The notes under the pieces were generated by a model. The model did no database searches. It saw only the letters and a list, made by a program, of their open reading frames with translations, and had not been told where the DNA came from. Of a stretch of DNA of 53,600 nucleotides, positions 1-48,430 are shown one piece after another. The translations under genes were made by a program, and so were the position numbers. Origin of the DNA: a virus (taxonomy: Duplodnaviria > Caudoviricetes); IMG/VR virus record IMGVR_UViG_3300030708_001013, positions 1 through 53,600 of that record; one strand, given 5' to 3'. The first letter of the stretch is position 1, and every line of letters begins with the position of its first letter.

Positions 1-28
1 AAATATAAGCTTTGTTAGCTCTTCCATA
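1..28. repeat. Terminal overlap, left copy (circular assembly / circular permutation)
   Basis: 1-28 aaatataagctttgttagctcttccata matches 53573-53600 aaatataagctttattagctcttccata at 27/28. The mismatch is synonymous (AAC/AAT, Asn) in the giant minus-strand ORF. Confidence 0.92.
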
Positions 29-12000: not shown

Positions 12001-12787
12001 ACCAAACAGCAGCATAATCTCCAAGCATAGCACCTGCTGATGTTAATACAATACCAGCAAGTAAAGCGGGTATACCTACTACAGGTATTGCTGCTGCTGC
12101 TGCAGCACCACCTGCACCAAGTACACCTATACCTGCTACTCTTGCAAATATATTTTTTTCTGTAGGATCAATTGCTCTTTGTATATTTTCTCCTGCAGTT
12201 CTATCTCCTTTTCTTTGAGCTAATCTATAAGCAGTAGCTTCATCTAATACATAAGAATAACCTTCAGGACTTTGTAATTTTTCTCTTAATGTATCTACTT
12301 GAGATGTTTGAGATCTGTTATCTGTTATACTTATAGATGGATATTTAATACCAAAATAGTTTTCTACTTCTTCAGTAGAATATGGACTAGAGTAACCTAC
12401 TTCAAATGTTCCATCTTCTTTATATGCACCACCTATATTACCATCAGCACCATTATAAATAGAATCTGTAGTAAATTCTATATGACTTGGCTTACGATAT
12501 TTAGGACTTAATCTAGTAGATCTTACAGGACTACCAAAGGTTTCTTTATATAAACCTCTATAATCATAAATACTTTCATCTAACTCTGGTACAAATCGTT
12601 TCCAATTTTGATAATCTTGTTCCTCATCATCTGTTAGTTCGGTATTATAATCATTAGTATAATCTCTTGTGGATTCATCAAATAATGCTTTTCTTGCTTC
12701 ATTAAGTGCAGCTAATTCTTCAAAAATAAAATCTTCTTGAGTTCTTTGATTGTCTACACCTTCTTCGAGTGGGTTGTCATTAATCAT
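1..12787 (-). CDS. Giant virion/ejection polyvalent protein with two-barrel RNA polymerase (N-terminal ~4,262 aa; continues at 53572..50691, ~5,222 aa total)
   Basis: ATG at 12787 (MINDNPLEEGVDNQRTQEDF...). The ORF track reports no minus-strand ORF here, as expected if the frame runs off the window edge without a stop. Segments translated by hand at 12100, 9800, 7414, 6271, 5650, 4000, 2926, 1615 and 28 read as open protein, and those with codon positions checked share one frame. It lies at the end of the virion operon. Confidence 0.92.
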   Translation of the reverse strand, partial: MINDNPLEEGVDNQRTQEDFIFEELAALNEARKALFDESTRDYTNDYNTELTDDEEQDYQNWKRFVPELDESIYDYRGLYKETFGSPVRSTRLSPKYRKPSHIEFTTDSIYNGADGNIGGAYKEDGTFEVGYSSPYSTEEVENYFGIKYPSISITDNRSQTSQVDTLREKLQSPEGYSYVLDEATAYRLAQRKGDRTAGENIQRAIDPTEKNIFARVAGIGVLGAGGAAAAAAIPVVGIPALLAGIVLTSAGAMLGDYAAVWWSQRDEREIEETLLRLDADDYVDPMEREAAEKKVASWYNDTLIEKYRGNTWGGTVADVFLESLPYMASFLAPGRALAGSVKPLEKGISNKIASILESSKDGKTVRGLYTQLKGGKEVINVASPFKITKEQSKEILRKVRKLDAKGQKIPAVTRNQMYRNLMEEAYHKNVSTFIKSKGARLGIAGPGSLLIQQPKVFSDLKNEELESVYVEDGKFKFDKFTGADIAKKEAQAVLAILVETVGFDLASKLFKNIGVHKLLKPVKDSVVKSKAYKTLGGPAIAKTTKDFFDNNTIGKSLSGKTQLMKDFKQISQYGSIFEEAAEEWIEMTTSAILGLDSDERKAQGMSYAENLVDKAFFPVLHPKEASAILTAVGIIPAGAGVVSKLRGDTLQEEFSQQIDMLKNFLEFQSKGDFRTDEEAAEAFEQTEQFVKSMLDFEANKKWYQKGIVGAILRPGKQQQFLVQQGLNIDSLSDLNSIVNKRAEELAAESKTEVTEGIKEKAIRQIVSERLIVRLAENKEDAELLSNLIDSGIIKPINVITTDTRTRTTKDKTGQTTIEERQFTTNVFKIDAKKRKELEKDKELGATYKRLFSGLNLINITKTNKQAEALINRKIKSGEFKRSNDAYIKEYNNALANPNEYKKQGYKSKKEYIEAKRKAAIDFLEKELRLFDELEKTQQGQVSVASLANSRKRIRSQLENFVDTMIKKLAEQPDTEIFIGETIAVEQAAGGRTAGGIFQATNVDNKIILTPSISLGGDSAARVLEEESLELNLKKLMSGRALISFTAEKNLKSIRSKLTTISKYKYKGKPTKKAIKAQKILDYLNTYSQDSRGDFELFISLVQNRYGSQDSRENDLENDLFDLITDKQKNDFNVAVLQNFSGEVKNNLIKEMSTSDLKIAEEIEKDIGSTGKRAVERFIETKSDTPAKKLKRMSKKIREAKQEAIEEVKQKVITARSETERFIAIEVLKILESEAYDDKSNVERKRKRALKKLHMMYPDMTYSFLPNENSPEGDQEIEQLESTSSDMEFDSTHGDRFLKGKIQQQIIAASNRRTGTINIIRLKDADWFIDAISSEEKYKEFKEGTHATSLERLIQKIAQTNSLEDMRSFHRKNISNHVQRYFKKLGDKLQMSNLVLPFEEMYDSVLDVHDNPDLKLEHYEKLLPIVDKNIEDLTSLEIVIILSVVEENTGIPISKLADINLERNNSIVRRIMTLTSEDLEISVSKTGKKRPAKRSKLKDAILHGAAVDKKIDNRTVTVFGFPEKDGIPEGILYSVMKSDISEFTSNPMFTNVEKSQKSAIRGDSHFDFIIDKLYKSLNIPEELDKDIKQRFVMFLDGVEFENLDVANMSGVEIASIIEEIFDNEIIGNINKNLKDKNLYYHHMGRFGEKGAAPFVLMEYYGTKKSNLLNAAKKALALLPKNKDAKKLFVDPVKLIESYPDKNLTKKEIMEAHYAINDIILMNAMHGDISNYMLSDKKTKDMSEDQKLAANFLNIIARQSQILTDGMRYRGSLNVIQIEDIPGITDSGGDAFDGQAMLTNDKLIEIADDMEIKDTDTLKAHISTSTPGDRTLIKVNWINMDLAGDSNPVMSKLKSYIDTWNKNNPDNKIEAIVFPSGAKLSRLENTNWENNEDPKIIKYEENDNLIVSQDLHHSNNSNHDGQIPSQRQAHFNGLNIEHNVKLGETQRVYLNNGLKAVKLRNEAALSRFDEAELKVIINETSSPALQEAYALGLDVENDPRFVQEILNIKLSQAKKLLAHKGKRLATQTMGQADLQLTPYEEVTDKNGNNLIKLARINVNIVGGRYETRTDFNGEPFGSLEDAIDFIKKYPSIFADMFWVKEDGTPDINHVLEHEIEKRNGSYIIPGEIIDRTRVPSGAYASHSFNRLKNPVSDKYSETNVAVPEDGIRIAMGEDLDGDKGFSLVLARKVKNLKNGMYKLVDGNFVVVNPKGVFNLEFVFKSKSKGKDLQDTLENKALLLEHIMWINADTFEYYNVKGDIPKDAFDSVINRESDPIYEDLKFGSIAGRENSIDINLVRNKVIGIIAVHNAFYSNTNSIDIDPFGSSALLSDAIDIPERITLRLKDKDITINEPIIKGNRANIQSRTSYRSTKSIFDIFLNQALDDHKDPRLFFANINADTAPILAALLFSNINNNDIPSNNDAVKDSLAGADAKTLIEFLKSDHIKLFNELLRVRRSTKKMVNGGINKENKNPFYTHKKFFPEEELDILIEKVIKDKNLFSYLKTKADLETEILRLKLLLKSHKKFSKAALRGIRNLNATHKSVVGKDNLIRIMQSRNAVSDVTSGINPLAEHSDNVINEYIKIGLDNIPALDKLISKDLLNILVRQYETDEKSTSYFYSLIELFTDEFGESDRGLLGIYLEVNEVLNVFNILQSLYESNGGKGIVKGTWIRKQRQAAVELLEKKSTSKLLKKLTVSKSGFIQLDNRTRSKDLTQTEILFLRESFDNLSKEEKIALSTVLFLDHRLKNSTWTGSYAQFITPDILEVINSKSKEVTAKAYETNEINSEELFNILVAIDINPKLQAEQDKAEDPVRLKRLSKPTAISTLNKYNEDYKKQSKIEAEKVKERRKKEEEKYDDLVEQSKERLPEEKPKKLTVQEKATKEIRNYSNPSALKHVPKEQVKTQIATQFIGQGKENSSTDKYRKMYDELFGLANTGNYTAEDIIMISSNGKRRDRYDPIVDGILQGEYKNIDKAIEAGSTFVMDTADHLKRYSYNLGEEQIAAYLENNGYERIAKSGSQSGIFKKQTDKKHTVTPKKTPANKISVSDIMLELVNLGGYYRDLGIDIRAVATGDIVQRYPDKSIRVNHQQLAENFINDNTDNIKFDNAVQYGQYVLQKFLLKEAGNKDIKKQALKNINFIPKKIDPDLTASFIQEDRINLELIDLANQLVAEGKTEDQIFAETGLYRFTKDGGWRLEIDDSKVVFRYNGILPTRRNIKLGDLIKHPVLFKAYPELKDLMVRFRSDKDKNTNATLGSYQSAYKGRPAEIVIYDGPKFMRAFSEPFLETFFHELQHAIQDHSNIPKTETGSNLQASHNETMRTILDNVIIILKILESSPNVSLKNKQEMFGNQTGERDTEFIKKNAIDMMLKGFPTDGVKNALMEYDSVSGWEDEFFSTFAQLVASAFRYRTPIHQSQKDFQFYTYVTNIGEIESNIAGARALLSRNQRRKIHPKETATNYYRKHTQEQITWHSLKMGDQETLDEYIARVGKIPTFPLLSQHLERIDLSDKLKNISNSEMTASMIVQSELINDNVLKTLEKYGFEISDADTLFIDIVNKKIALDELDIEQVAIALAETISFMMQRKYSIDLLNDDKFKKSPAYKNYLAKQPNKSKKSRIEAVRLMFKDLLQKGYEEKLLDEYNEVRTQAEEARRIALDIATGIKSLDMSMLEPLIENVINKTFSGEDFIRTLPIEDRVQVGFQDAFDESPLAKDIMNSIGTDENIFLTGSIVLATQGTVYRKPGGLVHDLDFISNYNTPKESSDKLLKEFPGTILAYNFLPPGQDSYVETYLVPPKGYTIDRVKRHPRTGKILSYRLIDKDKKVVGRYLLSYVDDAKGKPTYGNEDQAFDGPANLQPISVDFFTSMSGDKLSTNKIQDVAFMNNEGETILVSVSTPDRVMDAKLMMSRIKDIFDYNRYILFDRLPNAKLEDTNIPYSVDKRLNIRNSIRNNGHLSNKQIIYNDLADRLINSGIEIDKVNGSEIHYNTIYGKIKKIEKDKLYSIDNNTYIKEPDIDTLALKALVKAEKVIMKFKNIGKLPGDIQSMLYMSVLNDTIDNKILNEIDKLNYQKAVDLIVDLQITSNKQLIKSILEFDSLKDTVDKISINKSPNVFTQLNRMDSGYSEQEVREYLLNVEFYFKLLDQDIDIQKIFGTIQDQMDVLKEVEKTNDMEMLGVVKKAIRLTNGVPTKYQLNNNTVDERIVPGEITQSMLIMDRALDLVPITPDNQYGAIRNVVSPKTLMQNSLLFGTRQGRELIRYGRANKAYI
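1040..1690 (-). other. Pol-beta superfamily nucleotidyltransferase-like domain within the giant ORF
   Basis: IFLTGSIVLATQGTVYRKPGGLVHDLDFI (GS...DxD) and C-terminal DAKLMMSRIKDIFDY (K...RxKDxxD). Confidence 0.7.
2420..3330 (-). other. LPD23-like domain with HExxH zincin motif within the giant ORF
   Basis: IFAETGLYRFTKDGGWRLEIDD, KLGDLIKHPVLFKAYPEL, FFHELQHAIQ (H at 2926) and YVTNIGEIESNIAGAR...RRKIHP match the LPD23-associated metallopeptidase pattern. Confidence 0.8.
5560..7690 (-). other. Double-psi beta-barrel (crAss/phi14:2 gp66-like) RNA polymerase core within the giant ORF
   Basis: Ordered motifs: NAMHGDISNY, ARQSQILTDG, DAFDGQAML (D at 7414), LKAH...LIKVNW, RTRVPS, NVAVPEDGIRIAMGEDLDGDK (first Asp at 6271, about residue 2173), NKVIGIIAVHNAFY, FLNQALDDHKDPRLFFANIN. 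Confidence 0.88.
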
Positions 12788-35706: not shown

Positions 35707-35912
35707 CGTTTAACTAACTCCTGCTTAATAAAGTATTCGCCAGAAACTTTAGCTACTCTCATAACTTCTCCTGGTCTAATCCTTTCAGAAATCCATTCTA
35801 CAGCAGTTGGCATACTTGCAAAGTCTATTGTTTTAGCTTTAGGATGTTCTATCCATCCTCCATCAGACATTCTTGTTTCTACTACTACTTTACTCTTCCA
35901 TTTTCTTGCCAT
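35703..35912 (-). CDS. Hypothetical protein
   Basis: 69 aa, AGGAG RBS, coupled to terL. Confidence 0.65.
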   Translation of the reverse strand: MARKWKSKVVVETRMSDGGWIEHPKAKTIDFASMPTAVEWISERIRPGEVMRVAKVSGEYFIKQELVKR

Positions 35913-36516: not shown

Positions 36517-36528
36517 AATATTCTCCTT

Positions 36529-36570
36529 TAAAAAAACATGGGGGATTCAGCTTCTCGCTTTCCTCCCCCG
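36529..36570 (-). terminator. Leader terminator/attenuator-like hairpin before the late operon
   Basis: Minus strand GGGGGA...AGC-GAGAA-GCT...TCCCCC-ATG-TTTTTTT, immediately before the RBS. Confidence 0.5.
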
Positions 36571-36606
36571 TCATCTTGAATGAGGGTTATAACTGATGAC
36601 TTTTTG

Positions 36607-36635
36607 TTTATACGAAAATAATAGAATCCTGTCAA
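36607..36635 (-). promoter_or_regulatory. Sigma70-like late promoter
   Basis: Minus strand TTGACA (36635-36630), 17-nt spacer, TATAAA (36612-36607). Confidence 0.75.
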
Positions 36636-36918
36636 CAAGTTTCTGTACTTTGTACAAAATCTGTATAGAAGTTTCTATATCCCCCCTGATTTGAAATTTA
36701 TCTAAAAAATTTTACCAAGTACTGAAAGTGTATAACAGCCGTAGATGAGGTAGTATATATTATATATAAACACATAGACACTGCAAACATTGGTCATCTA
36801 TATAGGTAGATAGATACGACAACTTGCTGTTAGGATCCCCCTGCTAGGTGGTGCTGTCTATGTATGTATAGATAAACAACTAAAATAATCCTTTCAAACG
36901 TTATCGTATGCTATCATC

Positions 36919-36970
36919 AGAGTTGCTTTACAGCGAACTCTTCTAAACGTTATCTTTATCGGTAATATTG
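36919..36970 (+). promoter_or_regulatory. Hairpin + AAACGTTATC-N6-GGT element, copy 1 (candidate early promoter)
   Basis: agagtt-gc-tttaca-gc-g-aactct, then aaacgttatc (36945-36954) tttatc ggt; lies just upstream of the RBS of the gene at 37001. Confidence 0.6.
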
Positions 36971-37000
36971 CCATTAATTATTAATTATAAAGGAGACATT

Positions 37001-37276
37001 ATGTCTAATACAAAGAGTGATTCTAGGGTCGAACTTGATAAAGATCCTGCGGTTGTTGGGTTTATGCATTTTAACAAGAATGGAGATTCTGAAATGTGTA
37101 GCCCAATGTACATCGGTGGTGGTGCTAAACCAGGCACAACCAGCAACGATATACAAGCTGGTCTAGTCGACGGCTCGTATATCGGATTCCTGAATCCATA
37201 TAAATCAGGCAAAGGTCATCTGTTGGTTGTTAAAGCTCGCAATGCTAAAGCAGGCAACAGATATACTGCAATGTAA
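37001..37276 (+). CDS. Early hypothetical protein (possible DUF736/SSB-like)
   Basis: AAGGAG RBS before the ATG at 37001. GFMHFNKNG...PMYIG loosely resembles small phage SSB-like proteins. Confidence 0.7.
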   Translation: MSNTKSDSRVELDKDPAVVGFMHFNKNGDSEMCSPMYIGGGAKPGTTSNDIQAGLVDGSYIGFLNPYKSGKGHLLVVKARNAKAGNRYTAM

Positions 37277-37286
37277 TGGATTCAGT

Positions 37287-37328
37287 ATATAGATGCCTAT
37301 CAATGTTTGGTAGGTGTCTATGCTTTTT
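37287..37328 (+). terminator. Intrinsic terminator
   Basis: tatagatgcctatcaa-tgt-ttggtaggtgtctatg-cttttt. Confidence 0.75.
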
Positions 37329-37429
37329 ATATTGCGGGATAACGCAGAAGAGCTAGAGATTTTTTTAATAATAATATTCGGGAACAACGTTCGCAGTGCA
37401 TAATATAGCGGATTAGACATGATGAGATT

Positions 37430-37618
37430 ATGCAAATATTTAAGGAGATAATTATGGAAAGAGTAGTATGTTGTATCTGTAATGTAGACCTATCAGATAG
37501 GGATGACCTAGAGAATAGAATGTGTTACAGCTGTGTTGTCGGAGATCCGATGGAATTAGATAATCATCTTATAAATATAGGTGGATTAGACATAATGATG
37601 AGAAAGGATGTACAATGA
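37430..37618 (+). CDS. Small zinc-finger-like protein
   Basis: CCIC...CYSC. The AAGGAG RBS suggests the real start is MERVV. Confidence 0.65.
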   Translation: MQIFKEIIMERVVCCICNVDLSDRDDLENRMCYSCVVGDPMELDNHLINIGGLDIMMRKDVQ

Positions 37619-37893
37619 AAGTACAAGAGATAAATACTGCAGAGTATGATGCTATCAAAGATAAAGCTGTTGATATGTCACAAGACCAGTTGTTAGATGA
37701 ATTTGCACATTTAACAATACGAGAGAATGAACTCGAAGGTAAAGTAAAAGATATGCAAAAGGATATAGAGTTTGCAAATAAATTGTTTAAATCTATTAGT
37801 AGGAAATTAGAATATGTATTGACATATCTAACTGATGAACAGAAGACTGTCATCGAATCCAACTGGCAAAAACGTAATAAGATAGACCAATAG
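37615..37893 (+). CDS. Coiled-coil hypothetical protein
   Basis: 92 aa, ATGA-coupled to the upstream gene. Confidence 0.7.
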   Translation: MKVQEINTAEYDAIKDKAVDMSQDQLLDEFAHLTIRENELEGKVKDMQKDIEFANKLFKSISRKLEYVLTYLTDEQKTVIESNWQKRNKIDQ

Positions 37894-37908
37894 GTCTGTC
37901 TTTCTTTC
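37879..37908 (+). terminator. Intrinsic terminator
   Basis: aagatagacc-aata-ggtctgtctt-tctttc. Confidence 0.7.
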
Positions 37909-37914
37909 ATAGGT

Positions 37915-37970
37915 AAAGCTTTCGCTTTCAGCGGAAAGCTTTTAAACGTAATCTTTAATGGTTTATAATT
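37915..37970 (+). promoter_or_regulatory. Hairpin + AAACGTAATC-N6-GGT element, copy 2
   Basis: aaagcttt-cgc-tttca-gcg-g-aaagcttt, then aaacgtaatc (37944-37953) tttaat ggt ttataat. Confidence 0.6.
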
Positions 37971-37974
37971 GCAA

Positions 37975-38570
37975 TATAGACCAGCACTGGCTGAATAAAC
38001 GTGTGGATAAGTTAGCGTTAAGGCACTTGGACTTGAGCAATGTACAAATGTATGAGCAGAGAGTGATAGGTACGAGTAGAATAGAAAATTTCTATAATTC
38101 CTCGAAAGTTACAGGTAACAGAATATTCCTGTGTGCAACTTATTAAAGTATGAGAGTAATCTCATGCTTTAATTTTTTATACTATAGTATCAGCAAAGTA
38201 TCTAGAGCTGTATAAATATGATAGATACGGGTAGCTACCAGCTTGAGTGGTAGCTTGGTTTGACTGTCGCCAAAGGAGATTCTAAATATATAAATAGGGG
38301 AGCGGCACGGAGACGAGCAGAAATCAAGATGCGTTTGTAGTTGGCATACGTCGACAAGTAACTGATGATGTAATCGATTCCTACCCCAGGTATATTTAGA
38401 ATACAGACAGTCTCTATTTTTTTGATAGCTATGGTTAAACGAACCATTCCCGAATCCCGATATGGAGCAGGACTACACGTTCATGTTTGTAACCTTAAGT
38501 GATGAATCATTCTGAACAGTATAATGTTATTCATTGGCTAGTGTAGTAGGGAAGTCTATAGCTATCATTT
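37975..38570 (+). ncRNA. Cluster of putative structured non-coding RNAs
   Basis: Nested long-range inverted repeats: ataagtt/aacttat, gactgtc/gacagtc, attctaaatata/tatatttagaat, tgatagctat/atagctatca, actacac/gtgtagt. A terminator lies at 38144-38178. No convincing ORF. Confidence 0.5.
38144..38178 (+). terminator. Intrinsic terminator
   Basis: taaagtatgaga-gtaa-tctcatgcttta-atttttt. Confidence 0.75.
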
Positions 38571-38604
38571 ATTTATTAACAAGTTATTAACAAGGAGAAA
38601 AATT

Positions 38605-38835
38605 ATGAGTGTTCAATACGGACATTTTTTAACAGTATTAGATTATGAAAATGCACAGACTTATGTCTATAGATTTACTAAAGATATGTATGATCATTAC
38701 AATCAAATAAATGGTTGGGAAGATTTAATCTTTGAAAAATTAGGATTCAGAGAAAAAGATATTCATTGGATGTGCAATACATCAACTAAAATAGAAAGTA
38801 TAACCGAACCTATAACCTGGAGTGTAAATGATTAA
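38605..38835 (+). CDS. Early hypothetical protein
   Basis: 76 aa with AAGGAG RBS. Confidence 0.75.
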   Translation: MSVQYGHFLTVLDYENAQTYVYRFTKDMYDHYNQINGWEDLIFEKLGFREKDIHWMCNTSTKIESITEPITWSVND

Positions 38836-39238
38836 CTATATATTATTGATACCATTACTAATACATATAGAATCTTCAGGTAGAGATTATGTAGTAGGAG
38901 ATAATGGAACAGCTGTAGGTTGCCTACAGATAACAGCAGGAGTAATTAAAGATGTTAATAGAATATATAAGACAGATTATACGAAAGAAGATTGCTATAA
39001 TAGGAAGACTTCCTCGGATATTTGCATTAAGTATATATCGTATTGGCTTGAGAAAGCAGTACAAAGAGAACAAGCAGCGATATACAACCCTTACGAAATG
39101 GCTTGTCGCATCTGGAATGGTGGACCCAGGGGATACCAGAAAGAGTCGACAGAAGTTTACTGGGAAAAAATTAAACGTAGAGCAAAGGAGGTAGGAACTT
39201 ATGATGTTGCCAACTATAAAGTTAGTAATGATAGATGA
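38828..39238 (+). CDS. Lysozyme-fold muramidase/transglycosylase (i-type/destabilase-like)
   Basis: IESSG...GDNG.AVGCLQI...RIWNGGPRG....T..YW.K, with a hydrophobic N-terminus. Confidence 0.8.
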   Translation: MINYILLIPLLIHIESSGRDYVVGDNGTAVGCLQITAGVIKDVNRIYKTDYTKEDCYNRKTSSDICIKYISYWLEKAVQREQAAIYNPYEMACRIWNGGPRGYQKESTEVYWEKIKRRAKEVGTYDVANYKVSNDR

Positions 39239-39500
39239 TAGCAGAACAAGAATTGAAGCTGATATGTCTATAGTAAGTAACAAAGATTGGTCTAAAAGTA
39301 TAACAGTAGAACATAACTACTATAAAGTTTTAGAGGGTTTATTAAAATACCATAGAGAAAGCACTGCTAAAATACAGGATTGCTTTCCCTTCCTAACTGC
39401 AGATGAAAGGGAGTTTATGCTGACAGGCTTAACACCCGAAGAGCAAGAAAGAATATTTAAAAGCGATGAAGATATTCTGATGGGTTCTGAATCTGCATAG
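39201..39500 (+). CDS. Conserved phage hypothetical protein
   Basis: GGAGG upstream. IQDCFPFLTADEREFMLTGLTPEE motif is common in phage early proteins. Confidence 0.75.
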   Translation: MMLPTIKLVMIDDSRTRIEADMSIVSNKDWSKSITVEHNYYKVLEGLLKYHRESTAKIQDCFPFLTADEREFMLTGLTPEEQERIFKSDEDILMGSESA

Positions 39501-39622
39501 TCGCATTGTGATACTTAACCGAGGCAGCGGAATGTTATGAGCATTGTAAATCTGTCCAAACCTGCAGTGAGTAGTCTATGATAAAATAGGTCCACATGGG
39601 TAGTAAAAATAAGTATTGAAGT

Positions 39623-39693
39623 TAGCTATATAGCGGGTAATTTTTAGAATGAAAAATTACAAGAAGATCAGCGATGTCTTCGCTATATAGCTA
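39623..39693. other. Branched inverted repeat between convergent genes (terminator/processing site)
   Basis: tagctatatagcg (39623-39635) pairs with cgctatatagcta (39681-39693) and encloses the hairpin gtaattttt/aaaaattac. Confidence 0.65.
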
Positions 39694-39696
39694 CAG

Positions 39697-40386
39697 TTAT
39701 TCTGAAGCAGAGTCAAGTTTATTTTTAGAATTATTTTCACGAAGATTAGGAGATAGACCTGTAAACTGTATGTCTTGTACTTCAACATAATCTGCTTTGT
39801 CTATTTCTTTTTTACGCAGACCCATCTCAACATTGATTACTAAACCTTTATCAGTCTTATCTTTTTTGTCTGAATACTTATCGGGATCAAGAGCTTTTAA
39901 TTGTACCTCTAATAATTTATCAGAATATTTTTTTCTATATCCTACTATTTGTCCTAAATGATTTACCATAGGTTCATCAACACCTTCAACAGCACGTTCA
40001 TATAATGCTTCTTCTGCACCATGTAATCTTCTATTTTTACGTTCTTCTTTCGCAAGTAAATATAATTTTTTTACTGCTTTACATTTGCGTAGTGCTAGAG
40101 ATTCAAAGGTAGACCAACTATCGAATCCTGCTTTGGAAGTTACAACCAACATCTTACCACCAACTGCAATACCTTCTAATGCACTACGAATACAACGTCT
40201 ATCTTTTTTGCATTCATCGAATACAGGTAACTCATCTTCTGCACGATTTAGATCCAACCAGGAGACATCCTCTGCAGATTTCATTCTGTCAATAAACTCG
40301 TAAGATGATTCGGGTATTGGTTCTTCACCTGATAAATATACTCTAACACCTTTTTCATATCTATATGGATTTGGTAATTCATTCAT
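39697..40386 (-). CDS. terS: Terminase small subunit-like protein
   Basis: AEEALYERAVEGVDEP...G..VGYRKKYSDKLLEVQLKALDPDKY is a typical small-terminase C-terminal pattern. Confidence 0.72.
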   Translation of the reverse strand: MNELPNPYRYEKGVRVYLSGEEPIPESSYEFIDRMKSAEDVSWLDLNRAEDELPVFDECKKDRRCIRSALEGIAVGGKMLVVTSKAGFDSWSTFESLALRKCKAVKKLYLLAKEERKNRRLHGAEEALYERAVEGVDEPMVNHLGQIVGYRKKYSDKLLEVQLKALDPDKYSDKKDKTDKGLVINVEMGLRKKEIDKADYVEVQDIQFTGLSPNLRENNSKNKLDSASE

Positions 40387-40480
40387 AACTAATAATTAGA
40401 ATTTAATATAACAAATGTAAATAATAAATAAACGTTAATAAACGTTAGTGTGGTGGATAATGATTTAACCAGTGGTTAAA

Positions 40481-40560
40481 AAAAGTTTATTCTTCCTGCT
40501 ACTTCTCGCTTTTTTTCAGAGCTAAACTTTTAAACATTATCCTGCATGGTTAAATAATTT
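40481..40560 (+). promoter_or_regulatory. Hairpin + AAACATTATC-N6-GGT element, copy 3
   Basis: aaaagttta...cgc-(T run)-cagagc-taaactttt, then aaacattatc (40532-40541) ctgcat ggt taaataat; upstream of the RBS of the gene at 40586. Confidence 0.55.
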
Positions 40561-40585
40561 TAATATATATATAAAGGAGATAACG

Positions 40586-41653
40586 ATGATAACTACTATT
40601 AATCATGACCAACTCAAAAGATGTTTATTGCTTTTGTGGATGGCAGATATACCAGCATGTATTATTGGTTCTGTGGGTACAGGCAAGACTACTGCTGTAG
40701 AGAATATGGTTAAAGAACTAGATTCTAAAATGGAAGATAAGTTCCACTTGTGGAAAGTATTTTTAGGTTTGGTGGATGCTACTGACATTGGTGGTATACC
40801 TAACAAATCTGAAGATGGTAAGATTGATTATATGCCACCAAGATGTTTACCTTTTGATAGTAATGATAAAGGTATTATATTTGGAGACGAGTATGATCGT
40901 GCAGCACCAGATGTACAAAATGCCTTCAATCAAATATTGTTAGGTAAAGAAATACATAACAATGTCATTAGTGATAATGCGTATGTTGTTCTTGCAATGA
41001 ATGGAGAATCAGATACTTATACTACACCATTATCTAAAGCAGCTAGAAACAGAGTATGTACTTTATATTTATCTAGCGATGCATCAGGCAGTCAACAAGA
41101 TTGGGATGACTGGGCTAGAGAAAATAATATCAATGAAACAATCAGGGGGTTCGCAAAATACAGACCTAATCTTATTGTAAATGATTCTGAATTTACAGAG
41201 CAAGCATTGATTACACCAAGATCCAGAGATATGGCTGGTAGAATATTAGATACATTAGAAAAAGTTAAATTTAAAACTGATGATATTGTATTCCCTTGTT
41301 TAGCAGGAGTTATTGGTACTAGTGCAGCTCATGAGTTAATGCATTATATTGAAGAACGTGATACTATTCCTGACATCAAACATGTATTAGATAATCCTAA
41401 AGAGTATATAGAATACTTTGATAGACCTGATCTAGTATATATAATTTGTATTGGTGTTGAGGGGTATGTTGATCGTATAAAGAATGAAGAACAAAGAGAA
41501 GCAGCTGCAAGACAAGCTGTTAGTTTCTTTACTGAATACATGTCACCAGAAATACAAATGTGGGCTGTACAAAACATTGTCAAAAAGAATGCAGACATTG
41601 TTACAAGTAAAGAATACAAGAAGTTTTTCAATGAAACTAAAGAATTAATATAA
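40586..41653 (+). CDS. MoxR-like AAA+ ATPase
   Basis: Walker A GSVGTGKT, Walker B IFGDEYDRA, arginine finger ARNR, and TPRS sensor. Confidence 0.9.
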   Translation: MITTINHDQLKRCLLLLWMADIPACIIGSVGTGKTTAVENMVKELDSKMEDKFHLWKVFLGLVDATDIGGIPNKSEDGKIDYMPPRCLPFDSNDKGIIFGDEYDRAAPDVQNAFNQILLGKEIHNNVISDNAYVVLAMNGESDTYTTPLSKAARNRVCTLYLSSDASGSQQDWDDWARENNINETIRGFAKYRPNLIVNDSEFTEQALITPRSRDMAGRILDTLEKVKFKTDDIVFPCLAGVIGTSAAHELMHYIEERDTIPDIKHVLDNPKEYIEYFDRPDLVYIICIGVEGYVDRIKNEEQREAAARQAVSFFTEYMSPEIQMWAVQNIVKKNADIVTSKEYKKFFNETKELI

Positions 41654-41664
41654 AGGAGGTTCAT

Positions 41665-42531
41665 ATGTCACAAGCTGGAAAGTTAGTGCAAAAGTTATTG
41701 CTAGTAAAGTTTAACGTATCTTATGATACAGGATACAGATCGTCTAAAGAAATGGTAGAAACATTATCACAACATACGGAAGCACAAGCACATTGTATTC
41801 GTAGTGGATTTTCTATGTTCTGTAAGACTACTATGAGTCCATTTACTACAGCAATAAGTAGAGCTAGACAACACTACCAAATGGGTACATTACCTTGGGA
41901 AGAACGTGGCTGGCGTGTAATACCTGTTAATAAATGGCAGGACTTCAAAGATGAAATGGATGATCTTATTTCAGATATTAAAGACCAATTTACAAATGTT
42001 TTTGATAAAGGATATGATCATTTGAAAGATACCTTTGAAGAGAATGTAGGTAATCTCGAAATAGATTTTCCAAGCAAGGAAGAACTAGATGAGAAGTTTT
42101 GGGTAGATATTGATATTGGTCAAATGGCTAGTTGCGATGATATTCGTATACAAGGTATTGATCAAGCAGAGCGTAATAAGATTCGTAGTGATATGCAAAA
42201 ACAATATTCAGAAAAGTTTAATACTGGACTGAATGAACTCGCTACTAAATTAGTTACTGCTGCTGAAGATATATCTAATCGTGCATCTGATCCTGATCAG
42301 AAAGGCAAGAAGTATACTAAAAGTTTAAGTAATATTACTGAACTTGCAGATACTGTAGAGGGTCTAAACATAACAGGTAATGAAGCTATAGCTAAATCAT
42401 GTAAACAAATTAGAGAAAATATATCTGTATATTCTGCAGACTCTATAAAGAGTACAGCTTTAGTTAGAGATAATGTAATAAAAGCAACAGCTAATATCAA
42501 AGATGAGCTGGCTAGTCTGGAGATTGTGTAA
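41665..42531 (+). CDS. Helical protein of the MoxR/VWA triad (DUF3150-like)
   Basis: TLPWEERGWRVIP and DFPSKEEL..KF motifs; sits between the MoxR and VWA genes. Confidence 0.65.
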   Translation: MSQAGKLVQKLLLVKFNVSYDTGYRSSKEMVETLSQHTEAQAHCIRSGFSMFCKTTMSPFTTAISRARQHYQMGTLPWEERGWRVIPVNKWQDFKDEMDDLISDIKDQFTNVFDKGYDHLKDTFEENVGNLEIDFPSKEELDEKFWVDIDIGQMASCDDIRIQGIDQAERNKIRSDMQKQYSEKFNTGLNELATKLVTAAEDISNRASDPDQKGKKYTKSLSNITELADTVEGLNITGNEAIAKSCKQIRENISVYSADSIKSTALVRDNVIKATANIKDELASLEIV

Positions 42532-43847
42532 TGCAAACAGAAGCTAGAAAACATTTATCAAAGGGTTTGATGAAATTAATTCGTCAGACCCCTTTCTATA
42601 CCTCACTTGTATTATCTCATGAGATTATTGAAGACCCTAAACTAGATTCTTTCATGGCAACAAATGGTAAGAATTTAATATTTAGTGAAAAAATTCTTCA
42701 GTTACCTGTGAGTGAGATGTGTGAGATACTCAAACATGAAGCTATGCATGTAGCAAATCAGCATCACATACGAATGGCAGAGTTAGAAAAAACTCATATG
42801 AATAAAGTTAAAGCATTAGGTGTTAGTTTTAGAATGACATTTAATGTAGCTGCTGATTTAGCTATCAATGGTATCTTAAATGATTATTGGTGCTGGAAAG
42901 ATACAACATTTATTAAAGATGGTTGTATACCAGGCAAATATCCTTTTCATGAATATCCTAGATTACAAACTACTGAATTTTATTTTAATAAGTTGCTGGA
43001 TGATTATGAATCAGGAGAGATAGATGATGAGACCGCAAGTCAGATGGAAGCTGAAGATGGTCATTTTCTAGCATCAGAAGTGCAAATAGATCGCAAGACG
43101 AGTGCTAAAGAACAAGAAGTTCAAAGTGAAAAAGCTGTCGCTAAAGCAGTTTTAACGCATAAGCAAGAGCAAGAAAGAAATAAAGACAATAGTCCTTATC
43201 AGAGAGCTGCAGGTCGTGGAGATAATATTATAAATAAAGTATTAGAAACATTTGAATCTGACTCTGATCTTAACTGGCGTAGTGAACTGCGTAATTTCTT
43301 TACGCAAACTACAAAAGATAAATACACTTATCGTAAAGTTAATAGAAGAAATCATGATAATGATTTAATACTTCCTAGCAAATACAATAAACAACCAAAG
43401 GATATTGTATTTTTAGTAGATACTTCTGGATCTATGGATGATGAGTGTGTTGCTTTAGTTTATGATCACATTGAACAAATTATTAAAGTATCACCAAATA
43501 CAAGATTACATGTAGCACACTTTGATGATGTTGTATTTGAAGATAGTGTTAAAGAATATACTAAAAGTAATATTCCAATTAATAAACAAGATAGAGAAAG
43601 AGTAGGTTGTGGTGGTACACAGTTTATACCAGCATTAGATTATTCCAATAAACAAAATGCATCAGGTTGTATTATGTTAACAGATATGATGCCAATGGAT
43701 GGTAATTCTTTTAGGAATTATAAAATCAAAATACCTACACTTTTTGTTTCAGTTATGAAGTATCAATATGCTAATCTAGATATAGATTCGTATTGTGTAG
43801 AGCCTGATTGGGCTAATGTAGTGTATGTTAAAAAGGAGAAACAATGA
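42531..43847 (+). CDS. DUF2201-type metallopeptidase + VWA domain protein
   Basis: ATNG, LKHEAMHVANQHHIR (HExxH), NVAADLAIN, MIDAS motif VDTSGSM, GGTQF and LTD. Confidence 0.9.
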   Translation: MQTEARKHLSKGLMKLIRQTPFYTSLVLSHEIIEDPKLDSFMATNGKNLIFSEKILQLPVSEMCEILKHEAMHVANQHHIRMAELEKTHMNKVKALGVSFRMTFNVAADLAINGILNDYWCWKDTTFIKDGCIPGKYPFHEYPRLQTTEFYFNKLLDDYESGEIDDETASQMEAEDGHFLASEVQIDRKTSAKEQEVQSEKAVAKAVLTHKQEQERNKDNSPYQRAAGRGDNIINKVLETFESDSDLNWRSELRNFFTQTTKDKYTYRKVNRRNHDNDLILPSKYNKQPKDIVFLVDTSGSMDDECVALVYDHIEQIIKVSPNTRLHVAHFDDVVFEDSVKEYTKSNIPINKQDRERVGCGGTQFIPALDYSNKQNASGCIMLTDMMPMDGNSFRNYKIKIPTLFVSVMKYQYANLDIDSYCVEPDWANVVYVKKEKQ

Positions 43848-44785
43848 CAGAAAAGTTTACAAATATAACTGGTCTATCTGAATCTATTGCTAATGCAGTT
43901 AAATCATTTGCAAGTGAATATGATAAGGTAGGTTGGAAATCTGTAACAACTCTAATTGATTCCCCAAGATGTCAGTTACTTACAGAACGACATGGAGATA
44001 AAGTCACAGAAGATGTTAGTGATTTGCTTTGGTCGTTCTTTGGTAACATGGGACACTTAATTGCAGAACGTAATACTGATGCTAGTTCAATAGCTGAAAG
44101 AAGATTTATATATAAACATGGAGATAAAGAGATTAGTTTTAAACCTGATCTACTTGAAAGAGATCCAAATGATTTTAATTCTTTTGAATTAAATGATTTT
44201 AAATTTACTTCTGTTTATATATTAAAGTCTGCAATACAAGGTAACCCAAAAAAAGAATGGGTTAATCAAATGAACTTTTATGTTTGGTGTTTGAAGAAAC
44301 TTGGCTTTAATGTAAACAAAATTAAGTTACATATTATAGCTAGAGATTGGAGATTATCTGAACTTAAAAGAGAATACAATTATCCACCTCAAGCATGTGC
44401 TGTAGTAGAAGTACCCATATGGGATGACGATACTGCTGAAGCATATTGTTTAGGTAGAATAAAATTGTATGAAGATGTAGAACATTTAGAAGATGATGAG
44501 TTGCCTAGATGTTCTGATACAGAAAGATGGGCTGACCCTAATAGATGGGCAGTAGTTAAGAAGACAGGTAAAGTTAGTAAAAACACAGGTTATAGAACAG
44601 CTTTACCTAAAGCAGGTTCCTTTCTTACAAGAGTTGAGGCACAGCAATTTATTTCTAAAAGAAAAGATAAAGATGTGCTTGAACTTGAGTTCAGAAAAGG
44701 AGAGAGTAGACGTTGCAGTAATGGTTACTGCAAAGCAGCCGCTTGGTGTAATCAATTTCAAAAAGAAGTTGCACCAGCATTTTAA
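43844..44785 (+). CDS. PD-(D/E)XK Cas4-like recombination exonuclease
   Basis: SVTTLI, G..GH, KPDL...DFKFTS, QMNFY, and a C-terminal Cys cluster RC...YC....WC.QF. Confidence 0.85.
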   Translation: MTEKFTNITGLSESIANAVKSFASEYDKVGWKSVTTLIDSPRCQLLTERHGDKVTEDVSDLLWSFFGNMGHLIAERNTDASSIAERRFIYKHGDKEISFKPDLLERDPNDFNSFELNDFKFTSVYILKSAIQGNPKKEWVNQMNFYVWCLKKLGFNVNKIKLHIIARDWRLSELKREYNYPPQACAVVEVPIWDDDTAEAYCLGRIKLYEDVEHLEDDELPRCSDTERWADPNRWAVVKKTGKVSKNTGYRTALPKAGSFLTRVEAQQFISKRKDKDVLELEFRKGESRRCSNGYCKAAAWCNQFQKEVAPAF

Positions 44786-44801
44786 ATAAAGGAATAATAT
44801 T

Positions 44802-45188
44802 ATGTCTATAGAACAAGAGTATATTGACAAGATCGAAGAGATCAAACAGCATCAAGAAAAATTAACAGATTGGGAAAAAGGTTTTATATTTGGAGATGGA
44901 GATTCCACACCAATAGATACTAGACCTAATCTATCTATATCACAGAAAGCTATTGTTGATAGAGTTTATCAACAAAGAGTTCAAGGTGTTAACCAAGAAG
45001 CTGTTACAGAAGTAACAATGAATAATGACAGAGTTCGTGCATTAAAGACAGAAACTAATCAGTTTGCTGTTCATATAGATGGTAATGTAGTTGGACCTAC
45101 AGTATCTCAAAGAGAAGCTGTAGCTGTTGTTGGATGGTTATCTGATAGTATTGATAAACTATCACCTAAAGAAACAGAAGCATTCTAA
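44802..45188 (+). CDS. Hypothetical protein
   Basis: 128 aa with LTDWEKGFI...LSISQKAIV motif. Confidence 0.75.
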   Translation: MSIEQEYIDKIEEIKQHQEKLTDWEKGFIFGDGDSTPIDTRPNLSISQKAIVDRVYQQRVQGVNQEAVTEVTMNNDRVRALKTETNQFAVHIDGNVVGPTVSQREAVAVVGWLSDSIDKLSPKETEAF

Positions 45189-45508
45189 TGAGTGATACAA
45201 TGCTGTATATTGAAACAACTTCTGATACAGCATTAAATATAACAGAAGATATTGTTCATCTTCAAATTGCAAAAAATGCAATTAATAATTTATCACATAT
45301 CGCTAGTAAAGATTATGATGGTAGGTTTATTAGTAAAGATGAGCGATATCAAATTGTTAAATTAATTAATGTTGCTGAAAGAAGATTGCGTGAAGAGTTA
45401 CGAAAGGAACATATACAACCAACAGAGAAGAAAGTATATGAAAGTCTTCGTAAGAGTGTTAAAGAAGAATTAAAGAAAGAGGGTTATAAATTCAATGAAA
45501 ACTTCTGA
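45188..45508 (+). CDS. Hypothetical protein
   Basis: 106 aa, TAATG-coupled to the upstream gene. Confidence 0.7.
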   Translation: MSDTMLYIETTSDTALNITEDIVHLQIAKNAINNLSHIASKDYDGRFISKDERYQIVKLINVAERRLREELRKEHIQPTEKKVYESLRKSVKEELKKEGYKFNENF

Positions 45509-46172
45509 GAGTGTTAAAGAAATATTACCTGCATTACTATCTGTTACAGATAGTATGCAAGCAGAAAAAGATGGTAAGAATCCACATTTTAGGTCAGACT
45601 ATATGACGTTAGATGGTATTCTTAATACAGTTAAACCTATATTAAAAGATGTAGGTATTGTTATATTGCAATCTATTGATAACAATATATTTTCATCAGA
45701 TAAAGCAACTTGTGTAATAGAATGTCATACTAAACTATTACATACAAGTGGAGAATATATCGAATCTAAATGTATTGTTCATGCAGATAAGATGACACCA
45801 CAAGGTTATGGTTCAGCAATAACATATGTAAGAAGATATGGTATTACTACAGCATTAGGTATTGCAGAGGCTGATGATGATGGGAATGCAGCGGAGGTTG
45901 CTTCGGCACCAAAAAAGCCAGCAAGTAAACCCAAACCTGTACCTATTAATACAAAGAAAGTAGAGCCTCAAAAAGATGCATTACTATCTGAAGAACAAAC
46001 AAATAAAATAATAAAAGTATTTGATGATATTGATGTAGAGATATGGGATCTAGAAAAGATTGTAGGTAGCCATGAGAAGTGGACTGAATCTACTAGAGTA
46101 AAACTACTAGCATCATATAATAATATTCAAAATGGTATTAAATCTGTAGAAGATTTTAAAGCAGGTAAATAA
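45495..46172 (+). CDS. erf: ERF-family ssDNA annealing protein
   Basis: KDGKNPHFRSDY, LLHTSGEYI and PQGYGSAITYVRRYGITTALGIA..DDDG. Confidence 0.92.
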   Translation: MKTSESVKEILPALLSVTDSMQAEKDGKNPHFRSDYMTLDGILNTVKPILKDVGIVILQSIDNNIFSSDKATCVIECHTKLLHTSGEYIESKCIVHADKMTPQGYGSAITYVRRYGITTALGIAEADDDGNAAEVASAPKKPASKPKPVPINTKKVEPQKDALLSEEQTNKIIKVFDDIDVEIWDLEKIVGSHEKWTESTRVKLLASYNNIQNGIKSVEDFKAGK

Positions 46173-47554
46173 TGGAAACTAAAACTATATCATCTGAAAA
46201 TTTTATCATTGGATCAATCATTAATGATTATCCTTTGTTTAGAAAAATTTCTAGTGATTATGGTTTAGATGTTGAACATTTTGAAACAGCTACAGCAAAG
46301 CAAGTATTTGTTGTAGCTGATTATTTATATTCACAAGGCACAATAATAGATCCAGCATCTGTTATCGAAAACATTGAACAAAATAAAAGTAATGTAGATA
46401 TAGAAGCTCTATCACAAGTTGTTGTAAATTCTTTGAATATAACAACTAACACAGAAAATATTTCTAAACATATAGATAATATTATTATGAAATTTCGTAG
46501 ACGTAAGATTAAAGAACATCTTTCGTCTGGTATACAAGCATTAGCAAATGGGGAGGATTTAGATGCGATAATAAGTACAACTAAATATAATATATCTAAC
46601 TTAAAAATTAATGAAGACGAACAAGTGTCTATTAATGATACTATTAAAGGAATGAAAGATAAGTATATCTTAATAAAGAATAAAGGCTGTATGGGTGTTC
46701 AATCCAGATGGAAACAAATACAAGATCACACAGCAGGTTATCCTTTTGGAAAGATAACTGTACTGGGTGCAAGACCAAAGATGGGTAAGTCTACGCTTGC
46801 TTTAAATGAAGCTGTATTTTCTAGCATAGTAAATAAATTACCTACTTTAGTTTTTTCCATTGAGATGGATAAATCAGAGTTGTTAGAAAAAGCAGGATCA
46901 GATATTGCAGAAATAGATAACAAAGATTTAAAACTTGGTAACCTATCTGAAAAAGATATAGAGAGATTTATATCTAATGGTCCCGAAATAATATCCAAAT
47001 GTCCTTTATATATTAAGGATAGTCCGTCACAGACTGTAGAATCTATATGTTCTGATATAAGAGAATATGCAACAGATCATGATGTTAAGTTTGTTATTGT
47101 AGATTACCTACAAATAATAAGTTCAACACCTGGAATGTCATTTCAAAATAGAGCATATGAGATACAGTATATGACTAATCAATTAAGAATAGCAGCAAAA
47201 GAAACTGGAGTTGCTCTTATTCTTTTGTCGCAGATAAGCAGACCATTCAAAGGTAAAGACAGTTCAAACATTGCACCCATGCCAGAAATGCATGATCTTA
47301 AAGATTCTGGTGCTATTGAACAAGACGCATATATAATAATGTTTATTGGTCCACCAACAATTATCCCTGAAAATAAACCTTCATGGATTAATCCACATGT
47401 GGAACAATGTACAGTTAGAATTGCAGCTAATCGTGGTGGTTCATCAGGAGAAATACATATGATGTTTAATAAACCACACAATAAGTTTTTATCAATGGCT
47501 GAATATCAAGTATTTAAAAACAAAGCATATGGTGGTAAAAATGACCCTTTCTAA
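46172..47554 (+). CDS. dnaB: DnaB-like replicative helicase
   Basis: GARPKMGKST, FSIEM, VIVDYLQII, LSQISR, DLKDSGAIEQDA and ANRGG. Confidence 0.95.
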   Translation: METKTISSENFIIGSIINDYPLFRKISSDYGLDVEHFETATAKQVFVVADYLYSQGTIIDPASVIENIEQNKSNVDIEALSQVVVNSLNITTNTENISKHIDNIIMKFRRRKIKEHLSSGIQALANGEDLDAIISTTKYNISNLKINEDEQVSINDTIKGMKDKYILIKNKGCMGVQSRWKQIQDHTAGYPFGKITVLGARPKMGKSTLALNEAVFSSIVNKLPTLVFSIEMDKSELLEKAGSDIAEIDNKDLKLGNLSEKDIERFISNGPEIISKCPLYIKDSPSQTVESICSDIREYATDHDVKFVIVDYLQIISSTPGMSFQNRAYEIQYMTNQLRIAAKETGVALILLSQISRPFKGKDSSNIAPMPEMHDLKDSGAIEQDAYIIMFIGPPTIIPENKPSWINPHVEQCTVRIAANRGGSSGEIHMMFNKPHNKFLSMAEYQVFKNKAYGGKNDPF

Positions 47555-47846
47555 AAAAGAACAATATAGAAGATTAAATTCGTATGATGATATTAAATGG
47601 CAAAAACTTTTAGAACCTATAGAAGATTGTCATTTAAAAAGAAAGGTAGCATGTATTGTGTTTTGGGATTTTTATAATCTTCAAACCAAAAGATCACCAT
47701 ATCTTAAAACATTAGTTAGATTATTTAATGTAAACCTGCATGAGGATTTAGTTCCTCAAGCAGTGCTTTACAAAGAGTTATTAAGAATTGGCTATCCTAA
47801 ATGGAGAGCAAGTGAAAGATCTAGGAGACCTAAATGTCACAGATAG
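47529..47846 (+). CDS. Hypothetical protein
   Basis: ORF overlapping the helicase end; start codon uncertain (47529 or 47541). Confidence 0.65.
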   Translation: MVVKMTLSKKEQYRRLNSYDDIKWQKLLEPIEDCHLKRKVACIVFWDFYNLQTKRSPYLKTLVRLFNVNLHEDLVPQAVLYKELLRIGYPKWRASERSRRPKCHR

Positions 47847-48046
47847 TTAAAAAAACAAAAAATACACCTGAATTACATTATGGAATGATGTCAAGATGGT
47901 GTGATCTAATGCAGTTAAATACTGCAGAATATGCACCAGAATGGGTATCACATGTATTTGATAGATCAATGACAATACTTCAACATAAACATCCTGAACT
48001 ATTAGATCAGGTTCGTAAAATTATTAAAGAGAACTTTGATGGGTAA
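47834..48046 (+). CDS. Hypothetical protein
   Basis: 70 aa with AGGAG RBS. Confidence 0.7.
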   Translation: MSQIVKKTKNTPELHYGMMSRWCDLMQLNTAEYAPEWVSHVFDRSMTILQHKHPELLDQVRKIIKENFDG

Positions 48047-48428
48047 CATATCGCCAACTCAAAGAACTCTTAAAGCTAATAGAAATCTTGGTAGAATTTG
48101 TGGTATAGTTGAACGATGGCAGCAATATGGCGGCAAGTTTGGTATACGACAAGATCTATTTGGATTTATAGACATCATAGCTATTGACGAACATTATGGT
48201 ATTGTAGGTATACAATCTACAGGTCAAGATTTCTCTGGACATGTAAAAAAAATCATGGAGCTAGAAGAAATAGTTAAGAAATGGTTAGATCATGCACCAC
48301 TAGAATTATGGTCTTGGCGTAAAGTTAAGAAGGTTCGTGGGGGTAAAGCTATGATATGGAAACCAAGAGTCGCTGATTTTTATATAGACAGTAATAAAGA
48401 ACTAGTTTATAAATTGGTAGACAAATAA
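48036..48428 (+). CDS. PD-(D/E)XK nuclease (Holliday-junction resolvase-like)
   Basis: SPTQRTL...IVERW...RQDLFGFIDIIAI...IQST...ELWSWRK. Confidence 0.75.
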   Translation: MMGNISPTQRTLKANRNLGRICGIVERWQQYGGKFGIRQDLFGFIDIIAIDEHYGIVGIQSTGQDFSGHVKKIMELEEIVKKWLDHAPLELWSWRKVKKVRGGKAMIWKPRVADFYIDSNKELVYKLVDK

Positions 48429-48430
48429 TA

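Follow-up and report, generated by a model that had tools for sequence, protein, structure and literature searches.

The 53,600-base virus record IMGVR_UViG_3300030708_001013 of IMG/VR, analysed here over its full length (the window; about 30% G+C), carries three short elements, E1, E2 and E3, each lying ahead of a rightward transcription unit, which are considered here as candidate promoters for an RNA polymerase encoded by the same genome. The final 28 bases of the record (53573-53600) repeat the first 28 (1-28) with a single mismatch; this makes the genome either circular or terminally redundant, and the assembly was read as circular. Its genes are arranged in two arms. The leftward arm, which extends from 36516 past position 1 and on to 48932, codes for terminase, portal, a P22-coat-like capsid protein, glycosyltransferases and one giant gene (PHROGs, Pfam and the list of open reading frames (ORFs)), while the rightward arm, approximately 36960-48428, begins with small genes that have no known family and continues with a replication and recombination operon. 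The elements and the features around them are:

36607..36635, minus strand: leftward promoter, TTGACA (36635-36630), N17, TATAAA (36612-36607), about 90 nt upstream of the ATG at 36516; conserved in L004, a member of the sister genotype described below
36896..36905, plus strand: partial fourth copy of the core, an exact 10-mer AAACGTTATC without GGT after 6 nt
36919..36941, plus strand: E1 upstream hairpin, arms AGAGTTGC and GCGAACTCT, one bulged G, loop TTTACA
36925-36933, plus strand: E1 upstream element GCTTTACAG, inside the hairpin
36945..36963, plus strand: E1 core, AAACGTTATC, TTTATC, GGT; proposed start at GG 36961/36962
37001..37276, plus strand: first rightward gene, 91 amino acids (aa) (ORF list); RNA contigs at 36993-37218, 37008-37325 and 37058-37212
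37288-37322, plus strand: intrinsic-terminator-like hairpin after the first rightward gene (terminator scan)
37915..37942, plus strand: E2 upstream hairpin, arms AAAGCTTTCGC and GCGGAAAGCTTT, one bulged G, loop TTTCA
37924-37931, plus strand: E2 upstream element GCTTTCAG, inside the hairpin
37944..37962, plus strand: E2 core, AAACGTAATC, TTTAAT, GGT; proposed start at G 37960/37961
37961..38142, plus strand: manA-like structured RNA behind E2 (RF01745, permissive Rfam scan)
38142-38173, plus strand: terminator-like hairpin after the manA-like RNA (terminator scan)
40430..40447, plus strand: two tandem AAACGTTA octamers (starts 40430 and 40440), about 90-100 nt upstream of E3
40508..40519, plus strand: E3 upstream element GCTTTTTTTCAG, without a stable hairpin (pattern match, fold)
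40532..40550, plus strand: E3 core, AAACATTATC, CTGCAT, GGT (motif match)
40586..48428, plus strand: rightward operon headed by E3, with an AAA ATPase, DUF2201/VWA, exonuclease, Erf-like annealing protein, DnaB-like helicase and small ORFs (PHROGs, Pfam)

E1, E2 and E3 share the core AAACRTWATC-N6-GGT, of which there are three exact matches (36945-36963, 37944-37962 and 40532-40550), all on the plus strand. The expected number is 0.02 on average, and none of 100 dinucleotide-preserving shuffles reached three. A first-pass annotation, made by a model from the letters alone, had reported this arrangement of a 10-mer, exactly 6 nt and GGT at 36945, 37944 and 40532, and the count bears it out. No further copy of AAACRTWATC-N6-GGT is present in the whole 53.6 kb record, and the three sites are rightward only and intergenic; the random scatter through the genome that the same annotation had named as a ground for giving up the idea was thus not seen. 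When up to two mismatches were allowed, 10 matches were found compared with 7.8 expected, indicating that there is no wider degenerate family. The bare 10-mer has seven exact occurrences, and N6-GGT follows in three of the seven. The partial fourth copy proposed at 36896 does exist as an exact 10-mer lacking the GGT, and it is not conserved, the sister genotype having TAATGCTATC at that place. Over 38 nt the three sites align without gaps at 68-76% identity. In addition, all four copies of the octamer AAACGTTA in the window are on the plus strand within two control regions, and the tandem pair upstream of E3 is kept in the sister genotype.

Upstream of the core lies a second shared block. The pattern GCTTT-N0-4-CAG-N11-12-AAAC has three matches, at the same three sites, against 0.01 expected. 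The claim had been that each core is preceded by an inverted repeat enclosing GCTTT(n)CAG, the stems differing in sequence with pairing kept. This stands for the element, which is present at all three sites, and in part for the hairpin, which is strong at E2 (DNA fold -10 kcal/mol, z-score -3.5; 0 of 200 shuffles as good) and modest at E1 (-5.8 kcal/mol, z-score -1.4; 17 of 200 shuffles as good) but fails at E3. The inner pairs (GC/GC with the bulged G) are alike at E1 and E2 and the outer stems are completely different in sequence, so that pairing is kept across differing stems at these two sites and not at E3. The hairpins have loops of 5-6 nt and lie approximately 17-45 nt upstream of the likely start.

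Two genotypes were found, one represented by the window and L135 and the sister genotype by L004, G001, L143, L063 and L149, with flanks that are approximately 92-96% identical. In the sister genotype E1 reads AAACGTTGTC TTCATC GGT and E2 reads AAACGTAGTC. Between the genotypes the hairpins are unchanged, the E3 core is identical, and the same A-to-G change at motif position 8 is found in E1 and E2. The neighbouring stretch, 36780-36860, is heavily diverged, and the intact cores beside it show that the cores are under constraint. The stretch with the greatest difference between the genotypes is flanked by a 21-nt inverted repeat (36760-36875; 86% complementarity, arms separated by 74 nt), which lies upstream of the leftward promoter region. 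Beyond these genotypes, CTTYTAAACRTWRTC-N6-GGT was found in 16 stretches of the viral collections, of which two belong to relatives; the remaining 14 show no similarity to the window by tblastx and, judged by eye, resemble parts of coding sequence. In metagenomes at least 117 stretches carry it, and among the matches listed four are related, all of the two known genotypes. Using the ATPase as an anchor returned two viral contigs and none in the metagenome scan, and the TerS-like anchor also returned two viral contigs.

The annotation placed the three sites at the head of early units. For position this agrees with E1, which precedes a small gene, and with E3, which precedes the replication operon, whereas E2 heads a structured non-coding RNA. 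The distance from GG to ATG is 40 nt at E1 (ATG 37001) and 38 nt at E3 (ATG 40586). The 91-aa protein of the first rightward gene has no PHROG or Pfam match, and an ESM Atlas search gave scores all below 0.9; the RNA contig at 37008-37325 stops at the T-run of the terminator-like hairpin at 37288-37322. As the ORF at 37958 has no ribosome-binding site, E2 appears to head a non-coding RNA. The match to RF01745 spans model positions 1-192 of 192 with 33.1 bits (E 5.6e-6 in 4.1 kb), below the gathering score of 55.2, and the RNA is therefore named manA-like and not a member of the family. Contigs of all four marine metatranscriptome runs examined, from three studies, cover it. The first stem of the manA model uses 37961-37966, and a 347-nt metatranscriptome contig aligns to 37960-38304 with just two unaligned letters beyond 37960. 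Two independent lines, the model at 37961 and the contig at 37960, thus hint at a 5' end at the E2 GG; this is a hint because the Rfam match is sub-threshold and assembled contigs cannot prove an RNA end. If E2 does start at the GG, the TATAAT at 37964-37969 is part of the transcript rather than a -10 box. No argument is drawn here from the stretches that lack RNA contigs (37326-37959, upstream of 36993 and upstream of 40682). A second non-coding stretch, 38175-38440 on the plus strand, follows. Its fold is more stable than those of shuffled sequence (-70.6 kcal/mol, z-score -2.5), and it ends in a stem and T-run near 38405-38425. No Rfam family matched it at E <= 1, and in the sister genotype approximately 80 extra bases are inserted at its start.

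The candidate reader of these sites is encoded in the leftward arm:

1..12787, minus strand: N-terminal 4262 aa of the giant protein gene, which continues at 53600-50691, minus strand (ORF list, end overlap)
5348..8740, minus strand: RNA-polymerase module, aa 1350-2480 of the giant protein, with the DLDGD loop at 6257-6271

Across the circular junction the minus-strand frame 12787 to 1 runs on into 53600 to 50691, giving one giant gene for a protein of approximately 5.2 thousand amino acids (kaa); a homologue of 5225 aa is 94% identical. The protein has a GEDLDGDKG loop (DLDGD at aa 2173-2177) within a block, PGE..(T/S)R.P....SH...R...G(E/S)DxDGD, that is conserved in comparison with fragments of four relatives at 28-56% identity. 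The D, D, G and D of the DxDGD loop are invariant in all five aligned sequences, and we take the block to be the signature of a beta-prime-type double-psi barrel. An AlphaFold (AF2) model of aa 1350-2480, built from 16 sequences, has a pLDDT of 64.7 and a pTM of 0.56. Its top Foldseek match in the PDB is 6vr4_A, which is the virion polymerase gp66 of the crAss-like phage phi14:2 (E 1.1e-16), followed by QDE-1 (1.7e-5) and RDR2. VIA-align likewise puts 6vr4_A first (Z 14.2, root-mean-square deviation 5.1, 740 residues aligned), with RDR2 next (Z 10.3) and the rest of the list made up of RNA polymerase large subunits (bacterial beta-prime chains) and double-psi barrel (DPBB) domains at Z 9-10. 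Both the metal-binding DxDGD loop and the overall fold of a two-barrel polymerase of the gp66/QDE-1 kind are therefore present and, on the predicted structure, the giant protein is one that carries a crAss-type two-barrel RNA polymerase.

At the level of sequence the giant protein stands nearly alone. Its sole library match is LPD23, a polyvalent-protein domain (Pfam); it matched no PHROGs family, and a PDB sequence search gave nothing meaningful (E 0.88). A tblastn search with the polymerase segment against 50,697 phage records returned no match, and no cultured-phage match was found. Relatives are scarce, with 15 proteins at E <= 0.001 among 1.84 billion representatives and eight viral contigs. 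Given the position of the gene in the structural arm and the LPD23 domain, the protein is presumably a virion component that enters the cell together with the DNA. The first-pass annotation had proposed a promoter and polymerase pair in one genome; a crAss-type polymerase is indeed encoded, as judged by fold and the invariant DxDGD, and its pairing with the motif is a proposal.

We propose that E1-E3 form one phage-specific promoter class, with rightward starts at the GG, that is read by the giant-protein polymerase, and give this full statement a probability of roughly 0.45. The weaker claim, that E1-E3 are promoters starting at the GG, we consider likely. The layout of such a promoter would be GCTTT(n)CAG, 11-12 nt, AAACRTWRTC, 6 nt, GG. 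With a GG start the 10-mer falls at about -16 to -7, where it may provide most of the recognition, and melting may take place in the AT-rich 6-nt spacer. The TTTCAG or TTTACA falls at about -34 to -29, and GCTTT(n)CAG there could provide an auxiliary contact, which at E1 and E2 would sit in the loop of an extrudable hairpin; both the extrusion and a role for it are suggested by precedent. Under this scenario E1 would drive the first small gene, E2 the manA-like structured RNA and probably also the small genes behind it, and E3 the replication and recombination operon, and from the same precedent these units may be transcribed early. The reader would most likely be the crAss-gp66-like two-barrel module in the giant protein, and we infer both its use of these sites and its injection from co-occurrence in one genome and from precedent. 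The leftward structural arm would be left to the host polymerase, reading from TTGACA-N17-TATAAA.

That leftward promoter is, by its sequence, a canonical sigma-70-type promoter, and the contrast that the annotation drew between it and the rightward sites, which lack TTGACA, was confirmed, the TTGACA-N17-TATAAA being read on the minus strand. Since a TTGACA-type leftward promoter occurs together with a Shine-Dalgarno core in 28 of the 44 called ORFs, the host appears to use standard promoters, and the rightward sites would be a separate class. Sigma-70 promoters have a TATAAT -10 hexamer, in which positions 2 and 6 are A and T, that lies 6-8 nt before the start, and the most conserved base of this hexamer is the A at -11. 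When the sites are read as TWATCY, E1 and E3 have T at position 2 and E3 has C at position 6; when they are read as WATCYT, position 2 is occupied by the A that the sister genotype replaces with G at E1 and E2. A match to a host sigma consensus had been named as another ground against the proposal, and the 10-mer fails the sigma-70 -10 rules in both registers, on a start that is only hinted at. Two other promoter classes were compared by their consensus. Sigma-54 (GG...TTGC) was rejected, as the spacing is 9 and 11 nt and not 12 and E3 is without TTGC. The Bacteroidota-type TAnnTTTG was rejected in view of the 28/44 Shine-Dalgarno count, the TTGACA-type leftward promoter and the G variants, which break the match.

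Several observations weigh against the giant-protein polymerase as the reader of E1-E3. No result ties the motif to this enzyme as opposed to a host polymerase with another specificity factor, and the start site rests on the sub-threshold Rfam match and assembled contigs and so remains a hint. E3 has no stable hairpin (-1.2 kcal/mol, z-score +0.8) and shows only a 3-bp CTC/GAG pairing. The two genotypes known offer no covariation in the stems and little turnover of sites. In G002-G005, with up to two mismatches, the motif is at control level, and a crude repeat search in the polymerase-bearing relatives G002, G003, G006 and G008 found no equivalent motif; these distant relatives that share the polymerase are 28-49% identical, and most of the records are fragments without the relevant region. 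Similarly, the DNA upstream of the 68%-identical ATPase of G002 does not align to E3 (MAFFT). Moreover, with a GG start the layout resembles that of a sigma-dependent promoter, as TTTACA (E1) or TTTCAG (E2, E3) precedes TWATCY (about -11 to -6) by 17-18 nt, a sigma-70-family spacing. This is the main argument for the chief rival, in which the host multisubunit RNA polymerase reads E1-E3 through an alternative host sigma factor or an unrecognised phage sigma factor or activator, GCTTT(n)CAG being -35-like and the 10-mer extended -10-like. A consensus scan scored TTTACA-18-TATCTT of E1 at 9/12, and against TTGACA the TTTACA matches at 5/6, compared with just the two leading T's for TTTCAG. Several of the small rightward proteins without a known family could be specificity factors, and in phi14:2 a multi-block motif upstream of the middle genes is reported to be read by the host polymerase. 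However, neither a T7-like polymerase nor a sigma-like or DNA-binding family was detected in 43 ORFs compared with PHROGs, 27 of which, chosen mainly for having no PHROG match, were also compared with Pfam. The key -10 A is missing from two of the three sites when they are read in one register; in the other register it is G at two sites of the sister genotype. A factor made by the phage would become available only after the first transcription, whereas E1 itself lies ahead of the first rightward gene. On balance we regard reading by the host polymerase as a serious possibility that is nonetheless rather unlikely.

It is also conceivable, though improbable, that a regulator or replication initiator binds the 10-mers and the extra AAACGTTA copies, which would then be operators or iterons laid over host promoters, with TAATAT, TATAAT and TAAATAAT just after the GGT as the -10 boxes. 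The confinement of the octamers to two control regions, with the tandem pair upstream of E3 beside replication genes, would suit such sites, as would the palindromic AACGTT, and -10-like boxes do follow the GGT at all three sites, the TTTAAA-17-TATAAT of E2 scoring 10/12. Yet the boxes lie at distances from GGT that vary by 0-3 nt, their frequency does not exceed that in shuffles (27 sigma-70-like hexamer pairs in 35500-41500 compared with 30.0 expected), and the TATAAT of E2 lies inside both the manA-like RNA model and an RNA contig. The palindrome, moreover, is lost in E2 and E3, and the copy at 36896 is not conserved. Finally, the similarity among the sites might be a remnant of duplicated intergenic DNA with no shared function, an explanation that would account for the gap-free 38-nt alignment at 68-76% identity and for the presence of the sites in one lineage only. 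We consider it very improbable, as conservation is concentrated in two blocks between which the hairpin stems differ completely, all sites have the same strand and the same place ahead of transcription units, and the cores are intact between genotypes despite the strong divergence at 36780-36860.

The proposed pairing of E1-E3 with the giant-protein polymerase can be compared with known systems. Promoters of the N4 virion polymerase, a T7-like enzyme, have a hairpin near the start at every promoter, with a 5-7 bp stem and a 3-nt loop. The likeness to N4 is in an injected polymerase and a few early promoters with short inverted repeats and a conserved loop sequence. Unlike N4, the polymerase here is of the two-barrel and not the T7-like kind, no T7-like family match having been found (PHROGs, Pfam), the loops measure 5-6 nt, 17-20 nt separate the hairpins from the proposed start, and E3 has no stable hairpin. 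The N4-type hairpin promoter suggested by the annotation accordingly fits only two of the three sites, with hairpins approximately 17-45 nt upstream and a polymerase that is not of the N4/T7 type, and was not upheld.

The closer parallel is gp66 of phi14:2 (6VR4), which like the module here is a single-chain two-barrel enzyme with a DxDxD-type loop within a very large structural-arm protein. Intergenic non-coding regions of phi14:2 are reported to be strongly transcribed in the rightward direction already at the first time point, and the non-coding RNA behind E2, covered by contigs in all four runs examined, is similar in this respect. The differences are that there is no sequence-level match to gp66, that the protein here has about 5.2 kaa compared with 2.2 kaa, and that the capsid protein is P22-coat-like. 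The top phage matches of this capsid protein are Rhizobium and Pelagibacter phages at 30-37% identity, with no crAss-like match seen, and the phage itself is not shown to be crAss-like. Furthermore, no common early promoter motif is reported to have been detected for phi14:2, whereas this genome has a sharp one. The tape-measure-fused virion two-barrel polymerase of P23-45 is reported to have its own conserved AT-rich motif, and the promoter of the non-virion enzyme of AR9 is AACA-N6-T-A/G(+1), a short core with a fixed 6-nt spacer and a purine start. E1-E3 resemble the AR9 and P23-45 promoters in a short core around -10, a fixed short spacer, a purine start and no need of sigma-70-type boxes, and differ from them in core sequence, in the longer motif and in the second upstream element. 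AR9 also needs uracil DNA and a promoter-specificity subunit, and nothing of the kind was seen here.

The RNA behind E2 is like manA (RF01745) in its full-model alignment and in keeping the conserved CUGAAUAAAC, UAAGG and AGGUA. It differs in its score (33.1 compared with 55.2) and in being followed by a terminator and a further approximately 430 nt of non-coding sequence and not directly by a gene. The manA family is known from marine metagenomes and cyanophages, and its RNAs are reported to form multimeric cages (2026 preprint). The RNA runs with parts of the region here are labelled marine or seawater metatranscriptomes.

For promoter recognition by crAss-type virion polymerases, one enzyme has been studied, for which no common early motif is reported. 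A compact genome with both a three-member motif and the polymerase offers a directly testable pair. If the giant-protein polymerase does read E1-E3, the pair would show how a sigma-less single-chain two-barrel enzyme finds its promoter and would connect manA, an orphan RNA family, with the very first stage of phage infection. A bolder statement would be that E1-E3, with their bipartite layout, are the first promoters to be defined for a single-chain two-barrel virion polymerase of crAss type and belong to a marine phage lineage not described before, with the polymerase residing in an injected polyvalent protein of approximately 5.2 kaa and the manA-like RNA among the first products; taken as a whole it is tentative and, in our estimate, unlikely. 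If instead the host polymerase reads the sites, they would represent an unusual promoter class in a marine host, which is of narrower interest.

Other features of the genome deserve mention. A blastn search with 36500-41000 against the 50,697 phage records gave no match, and no tRNA genes were found. The structural arm encodes two glycosyltransferase-like genes, 15617-17377 and 27169-29265 on the minus strand (GT2 Pfam, PHROG 24687), and in a gap between leftward genes a unit of approximately 27 nt is present in three tandem copies (24867-24940; TTGAYTTTTTCATCATAG on the plus strand). Within the rightward arm a lone leftward gene, 39697-40386 (minus strand), has a weak terminase-small-subunit PHROG match (aa 124-185) and an ATG without a preceding Shine-Dalgarno sequence, and its counterpart in G002 is 72% identical. 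At 39352-39736, RNA contigs from three studies extend over the final part of gene 39201-39500 and the 196-nt gap that separates it from this minus-strand gene, and a terminator-like hairpin is found on the minus strand at 39685-39669. The 136-aa protein of 38828-39238 (plus strand) has an E-S-S motif and by eye the look of a lytic transglycosylase or lysozyme, with no tool match; this putative lytic gene is placed among the small rightward genes and not in the late arm. Directly 3' of the last rightward gene lies a glutamine riboswitch aptamer (48429-48480, plus strand; 42.1 bits compared with a threshold of 35), followed by two similar GGGAGATTG-ATG units at approximately 48481 and 48668 that may be small ORFs.

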